64,000 nt of DNA from Dictyostelium discoideum (Eukaryota), in assembly GCA_000004695.1 (NCBI GenBank), contig CM000155.2, positions 1,664,001-1,728,000 on the forward strand, written 5' to 3'. The first letter of the stretch is position 1. Every line of letters begins with the position of its first letter. A model generated the notes under the pieces. That model worked only from the letters and a program-made list of their open reading frames with translations, was not told where the DNA came from and made no database searches. Shown piece after piece: positions 9,774 to 19,184 of this stretch. The translations under genes and the position numbers were made by a program.

Positions 9774-9905
9774 CTATTTGTTTTTGAAAAAAAAAAAATA
9801 TAAAAAAAGGAATAATAAAGAAATAATAAAGAAATAATAAAAGTTAATTTAAATTATTTTTTTTTTTTGTTTTTTTTTTTTATGAAAAAAAAAAAAAATA
9901 CATAC

Positions 9906-10865
9906 AGCATCACCTGGATTTGGAAATTCAATTTTTCTATCAATTCTACCTGGTCTTAATAAAGCTGGATCTAAAATATCAATACGATTTGTACACATGA
10001 GTACTTTAATGTTTTTAGTACTTTCAAAACCATCCAATTGATTGAGTAACTCTAACATAGTACGTTGAACTTCACTATCACCACCACCGGAACCAGATTC
10101 ACCACGAGATGAACCAATGGAATCGATTTCATCCATGAAAATGATTGAAGGAGCATGTTCTCTAGCCATAATGAATAATTCACGAACCATACGACTACCT
10201 TCACCAATATATTTTTGAACCAATTCGGAACCACTAACTCTAATGAATGTGCAATCGGTATGATGAGCAACGGCACGAGCTAACAAAGTTTTACCAGTAC
10301 CTGGTGGACCATACAAGAGTACACCCTTTGGTTGAGCGATACCTAAACTTTCAAATAACTCTGGATGTTTAATTGGCAACTCAATGACTTCTTTGATCTC
10401 TTTGATTTGTTTATCCAATCCACCAACCATATCATAGGTTGAATCTGGTATCTTTTCAACTTTCATCAAACTGACCAACGGATCAATTTTATTTGGTAAG
10501 ATTCTATGGAGTGTGTAACTTTCATGTTTCAATGCAGCTCTGGTTGATGGTGTTAACTTGGCAATATCAACGGTTGGATCAATATCAACCACGAATTTAC
10601 CCTCTGGATTAACCTTTACCAATACTTTATTCTTTCCCATTAATTTGACTACCTCTGCTACATGTGATCCTGGGTTAGTCAATAATTGTAATTCCTCTTT
10701 TAACATTCTTACACGATTATTTAATTCATTTCTTTGTGCTTCTAATCTTCTTAAATCTTGTGCTTTTTCATTAACTTTAATTTCTAATTCTTCAATCTTT
10801 GAACAATAATATGATTTAATACCTTTTGTTTCATCTTTATTTTGTTGATTATTTTGTGCAACCAT
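9906..10865 (-). CDS. psmC5: 26S proteasome regulatory ATPase subunit Rpt6 (PSMC5), exon 1
   Basis: Walker A GPPGTGKT, Walker [24 protein letters not shown] and a GTATGT donor at 9905. The 132-bp intron is in phase and the total length is 403 aa. Confidence 0.85.
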
Positions 10866-12477: not shown

Positions 12478-13186
12478 GGCTCTTGACAATAAATTTGTTG
12501 CTAAAGGATTAAGACTCTACAGTGCTCGTTCTGTCGCAAACAGAACCAAGACCTTTGTTGCCAAGAAAAACAAGGTTGTTGCACCAAAGAAAGTTGTTGC
12601 CCCAGTCACACCAGTTGAAAAGACTTTCGGTAAAGGTAAACGTGTTATTGCTGCCAAAGCTTCCAAATTTGCCCCATCCATCCCAGCCGAAATCAGAAGC
12701 ACCGCTGCCAAAAAAGTTCAACAAAAAGTTGCTCTCCGTAAATCAATCACCCCAGGTACCGTCCTCATCATCCTTGCTGGTCGTTTCGCTGGTAAACGTG
12801 TTGTTGCCTTAAAACAATTAGACTCTGGTTTAATTTTAATCACTGGTCCATTCAAAGTTAACGGTGTCCCATTACGTCGTATTGATCAAAGATACGTCAT
12901 TGCCACCTCAACTAAAATCGACGTCTCAAGTGTTAAAGTTGCTGCCACCATCAACGACGCTTACTTTGCCGCTGAAAAGAAATCAACCACTAAATCTGAA
13001 GGTGCTTTCTTCAGTGACGAAAAGAAAGCTGAAAAGAAGAAAATCGCCGACTCACGTGTTGCTGACCAAAAATCCGTTGACTCTGCAATCTTAGCTGTCC
13101 TCAAGAAAGAAAAATTCTTAACTGTTTACTTAAAGACTAAATTCTACTTGAAGAAAGGTGAATTCCCACATCAACTCAAATTCTAA
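12478..13186 (+). CDS. rpl6: 60S ribosomal protein eL6, main 3' exon; the 5' exon(s) are not resolved
   Basis: ITPGTVLIILAGRFAGKRVVALKQLDSGLILITGPFKVNGVPLRRIDQRYVIATSTKIDVS...GEFPHQLKF* matches eL6. Codon use is GC-rich as in highly expressed genes. The frame opens at an AG at 12476-77 and there is no in-frame ATG, so it is missed by the M-start ORF track. Confidence 0.75.
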
Positions 13187-14098
13187 ATAAACTTTTTTTC
13201 TCTTAAATCCTCTTGCAATAGAAAATAATATATAAAAAAAAAAAAACTTTTAAAAAAAAAACTTTAAATTATAATTTAATATTTAAATTTTATTTATTTT
13301 ATTTATATCTCATTATATCATTCAATTTGAAAATTTAATATTATAATTTAACAATAAAAATTAATTATTTAATTTAATAATATTATCTATTTTAATTAAT
13401 TGATTTTTTTATTTTTTTTTTTTTTCAAAGAAAATGAAATTTAATATTACCATTATTTTTATTATTTTTTTTTTTTTTTCAGAAAAAATTAAAACAAATA
13501 TTTTTAAAAATTAAGAAATCAAAGATAAATATTACAACACAATGGTGTTTTGTTTTGTTTTGTTTATTTTTTTTTATTTTTTTTTTTACAGATTTCCTAA
13601 AAAAAAAAAAAAATAAAAAAATAAAAAAATAAAAAAAAGATCTAGTCAGTTTTTTTTTTTTTATTTTTTTTTTTTTTTATTTATTTTATTTTATTTTATT
13701 TTATTTTATTTTTTTTTATTCTTATTCACATATTTTCAATATCTTTGAAAAACCCTTGGTTTAATATTTAAAAAAAAAAATAATAAAAAAAATAAAAAAG
13801 AATTCCAAAAGGACTTCGAAAATCTGTTGAAAAGATCGCGAAACCAATTTTTTTAATATTATGACATAGGACCCTAACGAAAAGGCACTCCAAATATGGA
13901 AGGAAGTTGAAATAAATTAAATTTTGATTTTTTAAACTGTTTATTGTTTAATTTAATTTTTAAAAAAAAAAAAAAAATTAAATGAAATTCTTTCTCAATA
14001 TAAATTAAACAATTTTTACCATTTTTTTTTAATTAAATAAATAAATAAAAAAAAAATAAAAAAAAAATAAACTTTCCAATTTCCAAATTACTTATACA

Positions 14099-14131
<33 letters not shown>

Positions 14132-14243
14132 TATTAATCATAAAATAAAATAAAATAAAATAAAATAAAATAAAATAAAATAAAAAAAAAAAAAATAATA
14201 ATAATTATCAATTACTAATAATATATAATTTATAAATTAAAAA

Positions 14244-14929
14244 ATGAAATTATTATTTAAAATATCAACTTTACTTTTAATTATAATTCTTTGTAATTTT
14301 TTTAATTTAATATATGGTTTTCCTGGATCATATTCAGGATGTTCATCAATATCATATTCACAAAATGAGCTTGACACAATACCAGCTTCATTTGATGTTA
14401 GAACGAATTGGGGTGATTGTATGTCACCAGTAAGAGAACAACAGAGTTGTGGTAGTTGTTGGGCTCAAGTTACATCTGGAATTTTAGCAGATAGAATGTG
14501 TATTGAAAGTGATAAAAATATTAAAATGTTATTGTCACCACAATATTTAATGGATTGTGATGGAAGCTGTGTTTCCGATGGTGTAAGTGGTTGTAACAAT
14601 GGTTGTAAGGGTGGTTTCGTTGGTCTTGCTTTAACTCGTTTAATTAATGAAGGTATTGTTTCTGATGAGTGTCTTAGTTATCAAGCTTCAAAAGATTCTT
14701 CATGTCCAACAACTTGTGATGATGGTTCTCCAATTTCAAATACAACCATTTATAAAGCAACTAGTTGCAGAGCTTTTCCAACTGTTCAAGATGCTCAATA
14801 TGAAATTATGACAAATGGTCCTGTCATCGCAACCTTTATGTTATACAGTGATTTTAAACCACATAAATGGGATGTTTACATTAAATCTTCAAATACTCAA
14901 GTTGAAAGTCATGCAGTAAGAGTTGTTGG
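14244..14929 (+). CDS. Cathepsin B-like papain-family cysteine protease, exon 1 (signal peptide directly followed by the mature domain)
   Basis: IPASFDVRTNWGDC...QQSCGSCWA (catalytic Cys) and ESHAVRVVG (catalytic His). There are only about 25 residues between the signal peptide and the mature-domain start. A GTAAGT donor lies at 14930. Confidence 0.75.
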
Positions 14930-15027
14930 GTAAGTAGTTTATATATTTATTTTTTTTTTTTTTTAAAAAATTAATTATCTAATCATTTTTATTTTTTTTA
15001 TTTTATTTTAAAATTTAATATATTTAG

Positions 15028-15313
15028 ATGGGGAACTACAAGTGATGGAGTTGACTATTGGATTGCTGCTAATAGTTGGGGAACTGGATGGGGTGATAAA
15101 GGATATTTTAAAATTCGTAGAGGTAGTGATGAAGCAGCTTTTGAAGAAGGCTTCATTACTGTTACTGCTGATACTGCATCAGTCCCAACTTCACAATATG
15201 GTTTGGAATATCAATTTGGAGGAAATTCTTCCACATTCTTAAAACCATCCTTTTTAATTTTATTAACTTTAATTGTTTTATACTTTTTATTAGTTCCAAT
15301 TATTTTATCATAA
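15028..15313 (+). CDS. Cathepsin B-like protease, exon 2 with a C-terminal hydrophobic tail (putative GPI signal)
   Basis: [32 protein letters not shown] (catalytic Asn region), then ...[31 protein letters not shown]. The 98-bp intron lies between a phase-2 donor and a TTTAG acceptor. Confidence 0.7.
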
Positions 15314-15718: not shown

Positions 15719-17302
15719 ATGTCAAATAATAGTAATAAAAAATATAGAGTTATAAATGAAGAGAAATATGTAGATTCATTAAATAAAATTATAGTTAGGG
15801 ATTTTTTCCCAGATTTACCAAATCTAAGGGATCAATTAGAATGGATGGAAGCAGTAGAAACAAATGATTTAGATAGAATTAGATCAGTTCAATTAGCATC
15901 ATTAAGAAAAGAAACAACTGTTAGAAGACAGCATGATGACATTACACCTTCAATTAATAATAATAATAATAATTCAACATCATTTGAAACACCTATAATA
16001 CATAACGAATTTGATAATAATAGTAATAATAATAATCAAGATAATAAGAAAATTAACAATATTGAGGATGATGATAAACATATAGAAAATACTAATTTGG
16101 ATAATTTTGTAAATACATTTGTAAGCGAAGATGATGCAAGTTATATAGATATTCAAAAGAAACAAAATGAAAGAATATTAATAAAATATAAATGGTTATT
16201 CGATAAAGCTAAAGAGATTAATAAACATAATCAATTACAATTAGAGGGAAATAAAGGAACTACAACAACAACAACCACAACAACCACAACAACCACCACA
16301 ACTAACAAAAATTTATCATCTATAATTGAATATAAACCACCAAAAAATATTGTACCAGATACATGGAATTATAAAGTTAGGAATACATTAATGTTTAAAC
16401 CTGAAAATCTTGATCCTTCATTTAATAGGGAAATAATTGGTGGTCCACCAAAAGAAATTCAACATAGTAATACAAGAATAACTGGTAATATTTGGGAAAA
16501 TGAACCAAAACCTCAAAATATAAATAGATTTCGTGATAGTAATAATAATAAACCATTTTCTGAAATGACATTACAAGAACAAATTGAAAAACTAAAACAA
16601 TTAGAAGAAGAAGGTAAATCATCGATGGAAATTGAGAATTCGACATTTGGTTATTTATCAACACCACAAATTATACCTGGTAGAAGTATTGATGATAGTA
16701 GTGGTGGTGGTGGTGGTGGTGTTGGAGAATCACCATTAATGACATGGGGTAGAGTTGATGGTACACCATTGTTATTGGACTCAAGACCCATTTCAACACC
16801 ATTAGATATTAAATTAAGAGGTAGTGGTGCACCATCATTTAAAATACCAGAAACACCAAAAAGAGAACAACTTGCAAATAAATTATTTGAAAAAGTTGCT
16901 GTATCAAAAACTAAATCACAACAATCACCAATTGTAAATAGAAATAAAAGAAATAGTACTGGAGGTATGACACCAACCAGATCACTTGAAAGTTTATCGC
17001 CTGCTGCTCAAAGATTACTTCAAGCTAAAGGTAGTTTAACTCCAACTCATATTAAATCTAAAAATCATATAGATGATCAATTAAGAAAGAGTTATACATC
17101 TTTATCACCTTCACCTAAAAAACAAGTTTCAAATAATTTTACACCAACACCAATTACACCAAAATCAACACCATCAAACCTTTCAAGAAATATTTATAAT
17201 AATGATACCAAAAAAACAACAACAACGATAAAAACGACAGCTGCACCACTTCCAAACCCTTCAAATTCATCAATAACAGATAATTTATTAGATTTTACAT
17301 AA
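15719..17302 (+). CDS. Splicing factor ESS-2/ES2 (DGCR14) homolog
   Basis: RDFFPDLPNLRDQLEWMEA, SPLMTWGRVDGTPL and C-terminal ITDNLLDF match ES2 family signatures. The ORF is single-exon. Confidence 0.7.
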   Translation: MSNNSNKKYRVINEEKYVDSLNKIIVRDFFPDLPNLRDQLEWMEAVETNDLDRIRSVQLASLRKETTVRRQHDDITPSINNNNNNSTSFETPIIHNEFDNNSNNNNQDNKKINNIEDDDKHIENTNLDNFVNTFVSEDDASYIDIQKKQNERILIKYKWLFDKAKEINKHNQLQLEGNKGTTTTTTTTTTTTTTTNKNLSSIIEYKPPKNIVPDTWNYKVRNTLMFKPENLDPSFNREIIGGPPKEIQHSNTRITGNIWENEPKPQNINRFRDSNNNKPFSEMTLQEQIEKLKQLEEEGKSSMEIENSTFGYLSTPQIIPGRSIDDSSGGGGGGVGESPLMTWGRVDGTPLLLDSRPISTPLDIKLRGSGAPSFKIPETPKREQLANKLFEKVAVSKTKSQQSPIVNRNKRNSTGGMTPTRSLESLSPAAQRLLQAKGSLTPTHIKSKNHIDDQLRKSYTSLSPSPKKQVSNNFTPTPITPKSTPSNLSRNIYNNDTKKTTTTIKTTAAPLPNPSNSSITDNLLDFT

Positions 17303-17384: not shown

Positions 17385-19184
17385 TTATTTTTTTTTTACA
17401 ACTTTCTTTGATTTGTTATTTAAATTCTTTTTAGAAGCTGAAGGTATGAATGCTATTTCTAAATCACCATTATCTTTTTTAGTTATTTTAGTACCATCTT
17501 TTTCATCTTTATCATCTAAACCTGTTGCTTTCTTTATTTCTTTACCCACTCTAACACTGAATGGAGCACTCTTTAAAATTTGTTGTTTTCCAGATTCTTT
17601 ACCATTTAATGATGGTAATGAATGGCCAGTTTTAATTTCATACATTTTAATTGGTTTCTTTGATTTAATCTGTTCTTTTTGTAATTCTTTTCTTTTATTT
17701 GTAATTGGATTTGATTTAATTTTAATATCATCTTCATCATAATCGTCATCGTCATCACTATCTTCACTATCACTATTTCTATTTTTATTTTTATAATTAT
17801 CTTGATCGTCGTCGTCGTCATCATTGTCGTCATCACTATCTTCATCATCAAAATCAACTTTATCGAAATTATCTTGAATATGTTTATCCAATTTTGAAAT
17901 TTTAGATCTTGGATTTACTCTTAAGAAAGCTTCACTTCCTTCATCTTGTTCAAAATCTCTATTTTCAAACATTGCTTTAAATCTTGGATCTGATGAAGAA
18001 GATTGTGTAATTTCAGCATCCATTGGTTTGTGAGAATCTTGTTTTTGAATTTCATATTGAGCAGCGAGACGTTCAGCAAGTTTGGCATTGACAGCTGGTT
18101 TATTAATTGTAGTTGATGATGAAGAAGTTGGTTTCTTGGTGAGTGAAATACGAGTTTGATTCTTTTCAGCTAATTTATCTTTAATTTGTTGTTTACGTAA
18201 ATCTTCATAATTTGTTGGATTTTTAGACATTACAACTTTATTATATAATTTAATGTGAATGAAGTAACCATGCATATAAGCCTTCAAATAACCAGTACCA
18301 ATTAAATTTTCAATATCAAGTTTAGCAACTTCATCACGTGTAATGAATTTATAATCTTCGTATACTAATTGTTTATCTTCTTCGAGTTCTTCTGTTAAAT
18401 TATCCAAGAATGAACACCAACGTGGTGCAGCACCCAATGCAGGTACATAATAAGTTTGAATCTTTTGTGTGTTACCTGGCATTAACAATAAACCAGATCC
18501 ATTGGTCACCACCACGTCGGTAATCGGATTCTTTGGCTCCAATACCATATGAATTTTACCGGTATCCTTCTCGAATGATTTAAAGATTTTAGCATCTGAT
18601 GACATAATTCTTTGTGTACCATCACCACTAATATGGAAATTGATTGAATTAATTGGTAATTGGTATTGGTGCATCTTTATCATTGATGGCGATGCTGAAC
18701 GAATATCGTACATCAAGACACCGCCATTCGATGTGCCCAAACCCAATAACAAACCGTCTGGTCCGAATTTACCTGCAGTGATTGAAATTGGTTCAGAATC
18801 TTCATCTGCACTATTATAATCTGGCAATGCTGCTGCTGCGTTGATTGTTGATACCATTGTTCTAACCCTTGGATCCCAACATTCAATAAAACCATTTTCA
18901 CCACCCAACATCATCAATTGGTGTACTGGATTTTGAGCTATAACATTAATACCACCATTCAAATGAGTTGTCAATGGTGCTAAAAATCTACCTTCTTCTA
19001 AATTTAATCTATAAACTTCTGTATCTGATGCTGTAATATATAAATCACATGATGGTTTATGATATGTCATATCTCTACCTAATTTTGGAATTCTAGTTTT
19101 AAAATATGATCCAAATTTTGCATGAAATTCAATATATCTATCATCTCTTAAAAATACTGGTTTTGAATAATCATCTGATAACAT
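17385..19184 (-). CDS. Nucleolar protein 10 (NOL10/Enp2) homolog, exon 2
   Basis: LSDDYSKPVFLRDDRYIEFHAKFGSYFKTRIPKLGRDMTYHKPSCDLY, APRWCSFLDNLTEELEE and YLKAYMHGYF are near-identical to NOL10. An acidic Asp/Ser tail follows. Confidence 0.85.
   Translation of the reverse strand: MLSDDYSKPVFLRDDRYIEFHAKFGSYFKTRIPKLGRDMTYHKPSCDLYITASDTEVYRLNLEEGRFLAPLTTHLNGGINVIAQNPVHQLMMLGGENGFIECWDPRVRTMVSTINAAAALPDYNSADEDSEPISITAGKFGPDGLLLGLGTSNGGVLMYDIRSASPSMIKMHQYQLPINSINFHISGDGTQRIMSSDAKIFKSFEKDTGKIHMVLEPKNPITDVVVTNGSGLLLMPGNTQKIQTYYVPALGAAPRWCSFLDNLTEELEEDKQLVYEDYKFITRDEVAKLDIENLIGTGYLKAYMHGYFIHIKLYNKVVMSKNPTNYEDLRKQQIKDKLAEKNQTRISLTKKPTSSSSTTINKPAVNAKLAERLAAQYEIQKQDSHKPMDAEITQSSSSDPRFKAMFENRDFEQDEGSEAFLRVNPRSKISKLDKHIQDNFDKVDFDDEDSDDDNDDDDDDQDNYKNKNRNSDSEDSDDDDDYDEDDIKIKSNPITNKRKELQKEQIKSKKPIKMYEIKTGHSLPSLNGKESGKQQILKSAPFSVRVGKEIKKATGLDDKDEKDGTKITKKDNGDLEIAFIPSASKKNLNNKSKKVVKKK

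Follow-up and report, generated by a model that had tools for sequence, protein, structure and literature searches.

DDB_G0292462 of Dictyostelium discoideum encodes a cathepsin B-like protein without a prodomain and with a glycosylphosphatidylinositol-type C-terminal tail

Cysteine proteases of the papain family are a textbook case of enzymes that require a prodomain to fold and to stay silent in transit, and in cathepsin B an occluding loop carrying His110-His111 and the Cys108-Cys119 disulfide gives the enzyme its dipeptidyl-carboxypeptidase activity. Two groups of family C1A proteins in the amoeba Entamoeba histolytica are the closest described systems with regard to membrane association. 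EhCP-C, of 500-630 residues, has an N-terminal signal anchor and is predicted to be membrane-associated, with no recognisable pro region and no known function (PMC1913524). EhCP-B, which is cathepsin L-like, carries a predicted C-terminal glycosylphosphatidylinositol (GPI) signal or transmembrane segment and retains a pro region, of approximately 105-144 residues in most members and 55 residues in EhCP-B6 (PMC1913524). Known propeptides depend on a domain at their N-terminus that anchors them to the primed side of the enzyme; cathepsin X, whose propeptide of 38 residues is the shortest, makes up for this with a disulfide from Cys10P to the catalytic Cys31 (PMC7863939). Here we describe DDB_G0292462, a gene of Dictyostelium discoideum located within a stretch of 64,000 nucleotides (GenBank assembly GCA_000004695.1, contig CM000155.2, positions 1,664,001 to 1,728,000 of the forward strand; hereafter the window, with all coordinates counted from its first base). 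In our preferred reading, to which we assign a probability of roughly 70%, its product is a papain-family endopeptidase of the cathepsin B lineage that enters the secretory pathway, is tethered to the membrane and is made without an inhibitory prodomain.

The gene spans positions 14244-15313 of the + strand and, as reconstructed from open reading frames (ORFs) and splice sites, has two exons and one 98-nucleotide intron. Exon 1 (14244..14929) opens with the start codon ATG at 14244, with an in-frame stop codon directly 5' of it, and encodes residues 1-228 and two bases of codon 229. It is followed by the intron (14930..15027; GTAAGT...TAG, 6% GC) and by exon 2 (15028..15313), which encodes residues 229-323, comprising the end of the catalytic domain, a C-terminal extension and a hydrophobic tail, and closes with the TAA stop at 15311-15313. 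Without splicing the frame reaches a stop straight after VVG, and the orthologues align through the exon junction (VVGWG). The spliced product of 323 residues matches XP_629634.1 / Q54D62 (D. discoideum AX4 DDB_G0292462, annotated "hypothetical protein") residue for residue; as the gene is both annotated and conserved, chance is not an issue. The ORF listing contains no competing frame on the opposite strand, no second papain domain was found in the window, and the gene seems to be single-copy among the relatives that we collected. Orthologues from D. dimigraforme, D. firmibasis, D. citrinum, D. purpureum, Polysphondylium violaceum and Heterostelium album are 317-325 residues long and share the same layout.

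DDB_G0292462 belongs to papain family C1A and to the cathepsin B lineage, as a sequence-only reading of the locus had proposed when it called the product a cathepsin B-like protease with the catalytic Cys, His and Asn in place. The Pfam family Peptidase_C1 (PF00112) matches residues 46-266 with an E-value of 4.9e-49 and 167.8 bits against a gathering cut-off of 20.7, and among solved structures (pro)cathepsin B of human and rat comes nearest by sequence (E 2e-36). An AlphaFold2 model built with 35 homologues has a mean predicted local distance difference test (pLDDT) score of 88, and a Foldseek search of the PDB returned cathepsin B and procathepsin B on top (E 5e-25 to 1e-21); the best 50 PDB matches are all papain-family enzymes, with cathepsin C and procathepsin X lower down. 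From the Pfam match, the PDB cathepsin B alignments and the modeled fold, the papain-fold catalytic domain was delimited to residues 46-276 (14379..15169, with the intron inside). Its start, IPASFDVRTNW, pairs with LPASFDAREQW, the N-terminus of human mature cathepsin B; residue 45 aligns with residue 63 of procathepsin B, and residue 45 or 46 is the first mature position. The alignments place the catalytic Cys72 (codon TGT, 14457..14459) within QQSCGSCWA, with Gln66 of the oxyanion hole six residues upstream, and identify the catalytic His223 (codon CAT, 14910..14912) and Asn244 (codon AAT, 15071..15073), so that both parts of the earlier claim were borne out. All four residues and Trp246 are present, and they are invariant in every family member from the dictyostelids to a choanoflagellate. 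Glu245 of cathepsin B is a residue of the S2 pocket, and its position is taken by Gly270 in DDB_G0292462.

The segment ahead of the catalytic domain is short. Residues 1-25 (MKLLFKISTLLLIIILCNFFNLIYG; 14244..14318) form a putative signal peptide on heuristic reading of hydropathy, orthologue alignment and model: an n-, h- and c-region pattern can be recognized, the putative cleavage after Gly25 falls between YG and FP (conserved in D. purpureum between SYG and FP) and suits the -3/-1 rule, and the AlphaFold2 model has a helix at residues 2-19 and a pLDDT below 50 at residues 20-25. Alignments and the model then leave an N-terminal linker of about 20 residues, 26-45 (FPGSYSGCSSISYSQNELDT; 14319..14378), in the place of the approximately 62-residue propeptide of cathepsin B. 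Pfam matched no propeptide family (PF08127 Propeptide_C1 or I29) in the 323-residue protein, and because the protein opens with what is predicted to be a signal peptide, there would be no place for a propeptide ahead of it. When all stop-free stretches of the + strand between 12800 and 14300 were listed, they comprised only the exon of a ribosomal protein gene, rpl6, and low-complexity runs of poly-F/K/N, while tblastn of seven cathepsin B propeptides against the 64-kb window gave scattered matches with a best E-value of 0.76, none of them near the gene. The stop codon 5' of the ATG, the 12% GC of the spacer and the null tblastn result rule out an upstream propeptide exon. The absence of a propeptide, also part of the sequence-only reading, is thus upheld by the alignment to cathepsin B, by Pfam and by the upstream sequence. 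The nearest relatives outside the family (P0010-P0013) have 75-85 residues ahead of the mature start, and one of them, P0011, has PF08127.

The second feature of cathepsin B that is missing is the occluding loop. At its site, residues 141-153 (DECLSYQASKDSS; 14664..14702), 12 residues of DDB_G0292462 face approximately 36 residues (154-190) of procathepsin B, and for this reason the HMMER match to the PDB sequences is split in two. His110/His111 and Cys108-Cys119 of cathepsin B are missing from the multiple alignment, in which the human occluding-loop sequence agrees with the PDB alignments and with standard residue numbers. The region had previously been described as shortened, and it is indeed reduced to 12 residues, but this understates the change, as the loop itself is deleted. 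Judging from loop-deletion work on cathepsin B, an enzyme of this form would be expected to act as a pure endopeptidase, without dipeptidyl-carboxypeptidase activity.

The linker itself departs from the earlier description in which the mature domain begins almost directly after the signal peptide. About 20 residues do separate the two, but they are ordered in the AlphaFold2 model and contain an invariant cysteine, Cys33 (codon 14340-14342), and are not a neutral spacer. Cys33, Cys109 and Cys175 are invariant in an alignment of ten family sequences, and true cathepsin B has none of them; Cys175 (codon TGC, 14766..14768), the proposed partner of Cys33, is specific to the family and corresponds to Tyr151 of human cathepsin B. 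In a profile search of 1.84 billion representative proteins, from which 203 sequences were collected and aligned with hmmalign, 16 non-redundant proteins combine Cys175 with a linker cysteine 8-16 residues ahead of the mature start, 7 have the linker cysteine alone and 11 have Cys175 alone (Fisher p = 2e-11 for co-occurrence, kinship ignored). The eleven Cys175-only proteins were inspected as possible kin and rejected, since they have unrelated architectures with different N-terminal regions, seven of them with Ser in place of the catalytic Cys, and their match is coincidental.

Cysteine parity was examined in the same framework. Outside the signal peptide there are 13 cysteines, arranged alike in the Dictyostelium, Polysphondylium and Heterostelium sequences, and eight of these stand at the disulfide positions of cathepsin B (59-86, 69-121, 105-154 and 143-158). 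Cys109 and Cys117 are lost jointly in P0142, a family member of 385 residues from a Logan assembly, which suggests that these two pair with each other; with the eight at cathepsin B positions, this local pair and the free catalytic Cys72 accounted for, Cys33 and Cys175 are left as a pair. In the AlphaFold2 model, linker residues 31-50 form a beta bridge at 34-35 and reach a pLDDT of 92-98, the strand at 172-178 contains Cys175, and residues 26-30 are of low confidence. A model of the distant homologue P0008 has a strand straight after the linker cysteine. Taken together, the co-occurrence, the cysteine parity and the ordered linker suggest that a Cys33-Cys175 disulfide staples the linker to the R-domain.

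At the other end of the protein, a C-terminal extension of 47 residues includes a candidate membrane signal. GPI signals follow recognizable rules: an omega residue drawn from G/A/S/N/D/C, a small residue at omega+2, a spacer of 5-10 residues, and a hydrophobic end of 15-20 residues with no cytosolic residues after it. The tail of DDB_G0292462 reads GGNSS (293-297), TFLKPS (298-303), a hydrophobic segment of 20 residues (304-323) and the stop codon. When read by eye against these rules, Gly294, Asn295 and Ser296 (15221..15229) are candidate omega residues, small at omega and omega+2; the spacer may be drawn as residues 297-303 (STFLKPS; 15230..15250), giving a length of 6-7 residues, and the hydrophobic segment (15251..15310) consists of 20 uncharged residues that run to the stop, with no charged residue downstream of Lys301. 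Mean Kyte-Doolittle hydropathy is 2.09 in the last listed window of 19 residues (301-319) and 2.86 over the last 18 residues. In the model, residues 277-292 have a pLDDT of 87-97 and pack against the domain, the score drops below 50 for residues 295-300, and a helix covers residues 302-322. The resemblance of the C-terminus to a GPI attachment signal, as first read from the sequence, therefore stands by the omega, spacer and hydrophobic-end rules. A tail encoded by a separate exon with a second transmembrane segment was ruled out, since exon 2 encodes the tail in one piece with the end of the catalytic domain, and this objection to a GPI signal does not apply.

Signs of membrane tethering were also seen in the wider set of sequences. 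Of the 15 complete proteins that bear the cysteine signature, 12 end in an uncharged hydrophobic stretch, against 7 of the 175 others. The distant members P0006, P0008 and P0067 have Ser/Pro-rich stalks of 30-60 residues before the tail, and P0142, which has the linker-Cys/Cys175 pair, instead has a true transmembrane helix and, beyond it, some 50 residues of charged cytosolic tail. These stalked tails and the helix of P0142 suggest that tethering to the membrane is the trait that is conserved.

An unlikely alternative to a GPI signal is that the hydrophobic C-terminus is a permanent transmembrane anchor, which would make DDB_G0292462 a type I protein with practically no cytosolic tail, still tethered and still without a prodomain. 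A hydrophobic helix of 20 residues is long enough to cross the bilayer, P0142 clearly uses a transmembrane helix, and the tail motifs LKPSF and LVP are kept between Dictyostelium and Polysphondylium at approximately 50% overall identity. However, basic stop-transfer or cytosolic residues follow the hydrophobic stretch in none of the dictyostelid orthologues, small omega-type residues (GGNSS, GNGS, SSGS) and a spacer of 6-7 residues stand at the canonical distance from it, and the model is disordered exactly at residues 295-300.

By its sequence, the linker resembles a remnant of the C-terminal end of a cathepsin B propeptide. In P0007, P0008, P0009 and P0069 it reads (R/K)GLGGNLGIxxC, and MAFFT pairs the GLGGNLGI stretch with KRLCGTFLGGPKP in human procathepsin B, which stands about as far from the mature start. 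In cathepsin B this part of the propeptide extends through the active-site cleft in reverse orientation before reaching the mature N-terminus (PMC3355106; PMC7863939). The number of residues between the predicted signal cleavage and the linker cysteine is 7 in Dictyostelium, 9 in Polysphondylium and 3 in Heterostelium (QQQC); with only QQQ ahead of the linker cysteine, Heterostelium has no room for a segment that would block the cleft. A side observation on the same segment concerns P0155 (365 residues) of the choanoflagellate Hartaetosiga balthica, which has the three signature cysteines, a hydrophobic tail and approximately 50 residues between signal peptide and mature start; it may represent an intermediate state of propeptide reduction.

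This resemblance raises a further alternative, which we regard as quite improbable: that the linker is a functional mini-propeptide, similar to that of cathepsin X, which would occupy the cleft or its surroundings and hold the enzyme latent until its removal or reduction. Inhibition by a very short, cysteine-bearing propeptide is known from cathepsin X (PMC7863939), and procathepsin X is among the fold matches. The linker is ordered in the AlphaFold2 model, the template-modeling scores of DDB_G0292462 are slightly higher for pro-forms (0.67-0.68) than for mature enzymes (0.62-0.64), and the distant GLGGNLGI aligns with a propeptide stretch that crosses the cleft at the same distance from the mature start. 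Against this, the linker cysteine co-varies with Cys175 of the R-domain and not with the catalytic cysteine, and parity leaves Cys72 free. Removal of the signal peptide would leave 7 residues (Dictyostelium) or 3 residues (Heterostelium) before the stapled cysteine, residues 26-30 of the model have low confidence, and in P0008 the GLGGNLGI stretch reaches a pLDDT of only 53-83. There is also no N-terminal domain for the primed-side anchoring that known propeptides need (PMC7863939). A covalent propeptide of the cathepsin X type is likewise disfavored by the short N-terminus, the Cys33/Cys175 co-occurrence, the cysteine parity and the P0008 model. With no prodomain and 3-9 residues before the stapled cysteine in dictyostelids, latency of the classical zymogen type would not be available, and a classical zymogen mechanism seems excluded for these species.

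The preferred reading of a tethered enzyme made without a prodomain can be set out as a sequence of events. The signal peptide would direct the protein into the endoplasmic reticulum (ER) and be cut after approximately Gly25. By the sequence rules, the C-terminal 27-30 residues would serve as the GPI-attachment signal and be exchanged for the anchor, which would be joined to Gly294, Asn295 or Ser296 and keep the catalytic domain near the outer leaflet. The domain would fold with six disulfides, namely the four at cathepsin B positions (59-86, 69-121, 105-154 and 143-158), the local 109-117 pair and the family-specific 33-175 pair, the last of which may hold the propeptide remnant to the side of the enzyme and out of the active-site cleft. 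The active site (Gln66, Cys72, His223 and Asn244) is complete. Without zymogen latency, activity would have to depend on pH, on redox state, on location or on cystatins of the cell itself, or would simply be constitutive. As for its role, we can only speculate that the enzyme cleaves proteins close to the membrane, either on the cell surface or in the lumen of the phagosome or macropinosome. The architecture first read from this sequence, that is, a cathepsin B-like enzyme with no prodomain and a GPI-type tail, is correct, and the broader proposal of which it formed part is partly supported; the GPI type of anchoring, the cell-surface location and the constitutive activity are inferred.

Several points weigh against this reading. 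The co-occurrence statistic for Cys33 and Cys175 ignores phylogeny, and the bond between them is a predicted one. The conservation of LKPSF and LVP exceeds what a discarded GPI signal would need and is compatible with a retained transmembrane helix. The GLGGNLGI stretch of distant members aligns with the cleft-crossing KRLCGTFLGG, and residual self-masking is possible, with weak masking of this kind possible in the basal members. Lastly, papain-family enzymes generally need a prodomain to fold, and therefore an additional folding aid may exist. Catalytically dead cathepsin B-like proteins are known, Ser or Gly replaces the catalytic Cys in some of the loopless cathepsin B-like relatives that the search returned, and a missing prodomain would be harmless in an inactive protein, but the invariance of Gln66, Cys72, His223, Asn244 and Trp246 from dictyostelids to a choanoflagellate indicates purifying selection on catalysis and makes it very improbable that DDB_G0292462 has only the papain fold and no proteolytic activity, serving at the surface in adhesion or binding, for instance.

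The family defined by the predicted staple includes several other protists. Its named members come from Dictyostelium species, Polysphondylium violaceum, Heterostelium album (PPL_08471), Synstelium polycarpum, the protosteloid amoeba Soliformovum irregulare and the choanoflagellate Hartaetosiga balthica; further members are metagenome and transcriptome sequences, and all members carry automatic names only. Relatives that have the tail and no staple include a cluster from Goniomonas avonlea. In a neighbor-joining tree, which lacks support values and serves as a rough guide only, the staple family groups with the staple-less, tail-bearing forms, followed outward by loopless proteins with N-terminal extensions of approximately 285 residues, loopless cathepsin B-like enzymes that have propeptides and canonical cathepsin B. 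The name "TINAG-like" was considered for the clade with the ~285-residue extensions and was dropped, as Pfam finds no domain in these extensions. Two members have unusual lengths: P0006 (Synstelium polycarpum, 519 residues) has the family domain fused to about 200 unrelated N-terminal residues, and P0061 (1180 residues) has it fused to about 900 unrelated C-terminal residues. In both cases the source annotation has probably joined two genes into one model.

A more far-reaching proposal, which we put forward tentatively and regard as doubtful, is that these proteins form an old clade, covering at least Amoebozoa and choanoflagellates, in which a stapled clamp replaces the prodomain: its enzymes would never be zymogens, would be displayed at the surface by a GPI or transmembrane anchor, and would act as membrane-proximal sheddases or processors of prey proteins. 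If true, prodomain-assisted folding and latency would not be obligatory for the papain fold in secretory proteases of eukaryotes. With its complete catalytic residues, its conserved cysteine pair where a prodomain would stand and its putative anchor signal, the staple family would in any case offer a natural test case for how an enzyme without a prodomain folds and is restrained in the ER and Golgi. The loopless, tethered design predicts endopeptidase action limited to substrates near the membrane, with possible relevance to the shedding of adhesion molecules and the digestion of prey in phagosomes. D. discoideum, moreover, is genetically tractable.

The window has a GC content of 23%, and the style of intron and intergenic sequence is typical of Dictyostelium. 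Directly upstream on the same strand lies the last exon of rpl6, encoding ribosomal protein L6e (12800-13183; Pfam Ribosomal_L6e, E 2e-40), whose end at 13183 sets the 5' limit of the intergenic region of the protease gene. The spacer of about 1 kb that follows (13184-14243) has a GC content of 12% and long A/T homopolymers, with repeats of (AAT)n at approximately 14100-14135 and (AAAAT)n at approximately 14140-14185 near the start codon. Within exon 2, a GTG-initiated ORF of 66 residues in another frame (15042-15242, + strand) is an artefact of bacterial-style listing and not a gene. Downstream are an Es2/DGCR14-type nuclear protein with a run of 15 threonines (15719-17302, + strand) and a NOL10-like WD-repeat nucleolar protein (17385-19184, - strand), both of them housekeeping genes that show no obvious connection with the protease gene. 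Farther upstream, an ORF at 9849-10865 (- strand) has AAA and proteasomal-ATPase OB domains and corresponds to a 26S proteasome regulatory subunit.

Our literature search found no paper that names DDB_G0292462 or Q54D62 or describes its combination of features, and searches on propeptide-less or GPI-anchored papain-like enzymes and on loopless cathepsin B of Dictyostelium found nothing on the staple family. The comparison with known enzymes is made feature by feature. With cathepsin B (MEROPS C01.060; human, rat, trypanosome and schistosome structures), DDB_G0292462 has in common the (I/L)PASFD(A/V)R mature motif, the catalytic residues and four disulfide positions; it differs in having neither the 62-residue propeptide nor the occluding loop, in Gly270 for Glu245, in the predicted extra pairs Cys33-Cys175 and Cys109-Cys117, and in the C-terminal extension of 47 residues. 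The loopless protist cathepsin B-like proteins P0010-P0013, which are environmental sequences 37-43% identical to it, share a short loop region of 11-15 residues, but keep N-termini of approximately 75-85 residues and have neither the staple cysteines nor a hydrophobic tail. EhCP-C can be likened to it by description only, both being amoebozoan C1A proteins that are predicted to be membrane-associated and have no recognisable pro region; in contrast to EhCP-C, DDB_G0292462 has only 323 residues, a short and probably cleaved signal peptide, and a C-terminal tail instead of an N-terminal anchor. EhCP-B resembles it in the predicted C-terminal membrane signal, but keeps its pro region and is cathepsin L-like. 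Cathepsin X/Z (procathepsin X, PDB 1DEU), one of the fold matches, has a very short N-terminal segment with a cysteine in common with it, whereas the linker cysteine of DDB_G0292462 is predicted to pair with a cysteine of the R-domain, and the segment is shorter still (20 residues). Each separate feature thus has a precedent, in EhCP-C, EhCP-B, cathepsin X or the loopless protist cathepsin B enzymes, and the importance of the finding is moderate for this reason. Newly described here are the predicted, conserved Cys33-Cys175 staple, the reading of the linker as a vestigial propeptide, the full loss of the occluding loop and a conserved family that reaches from the dictyostelids to a choanoflagellate.

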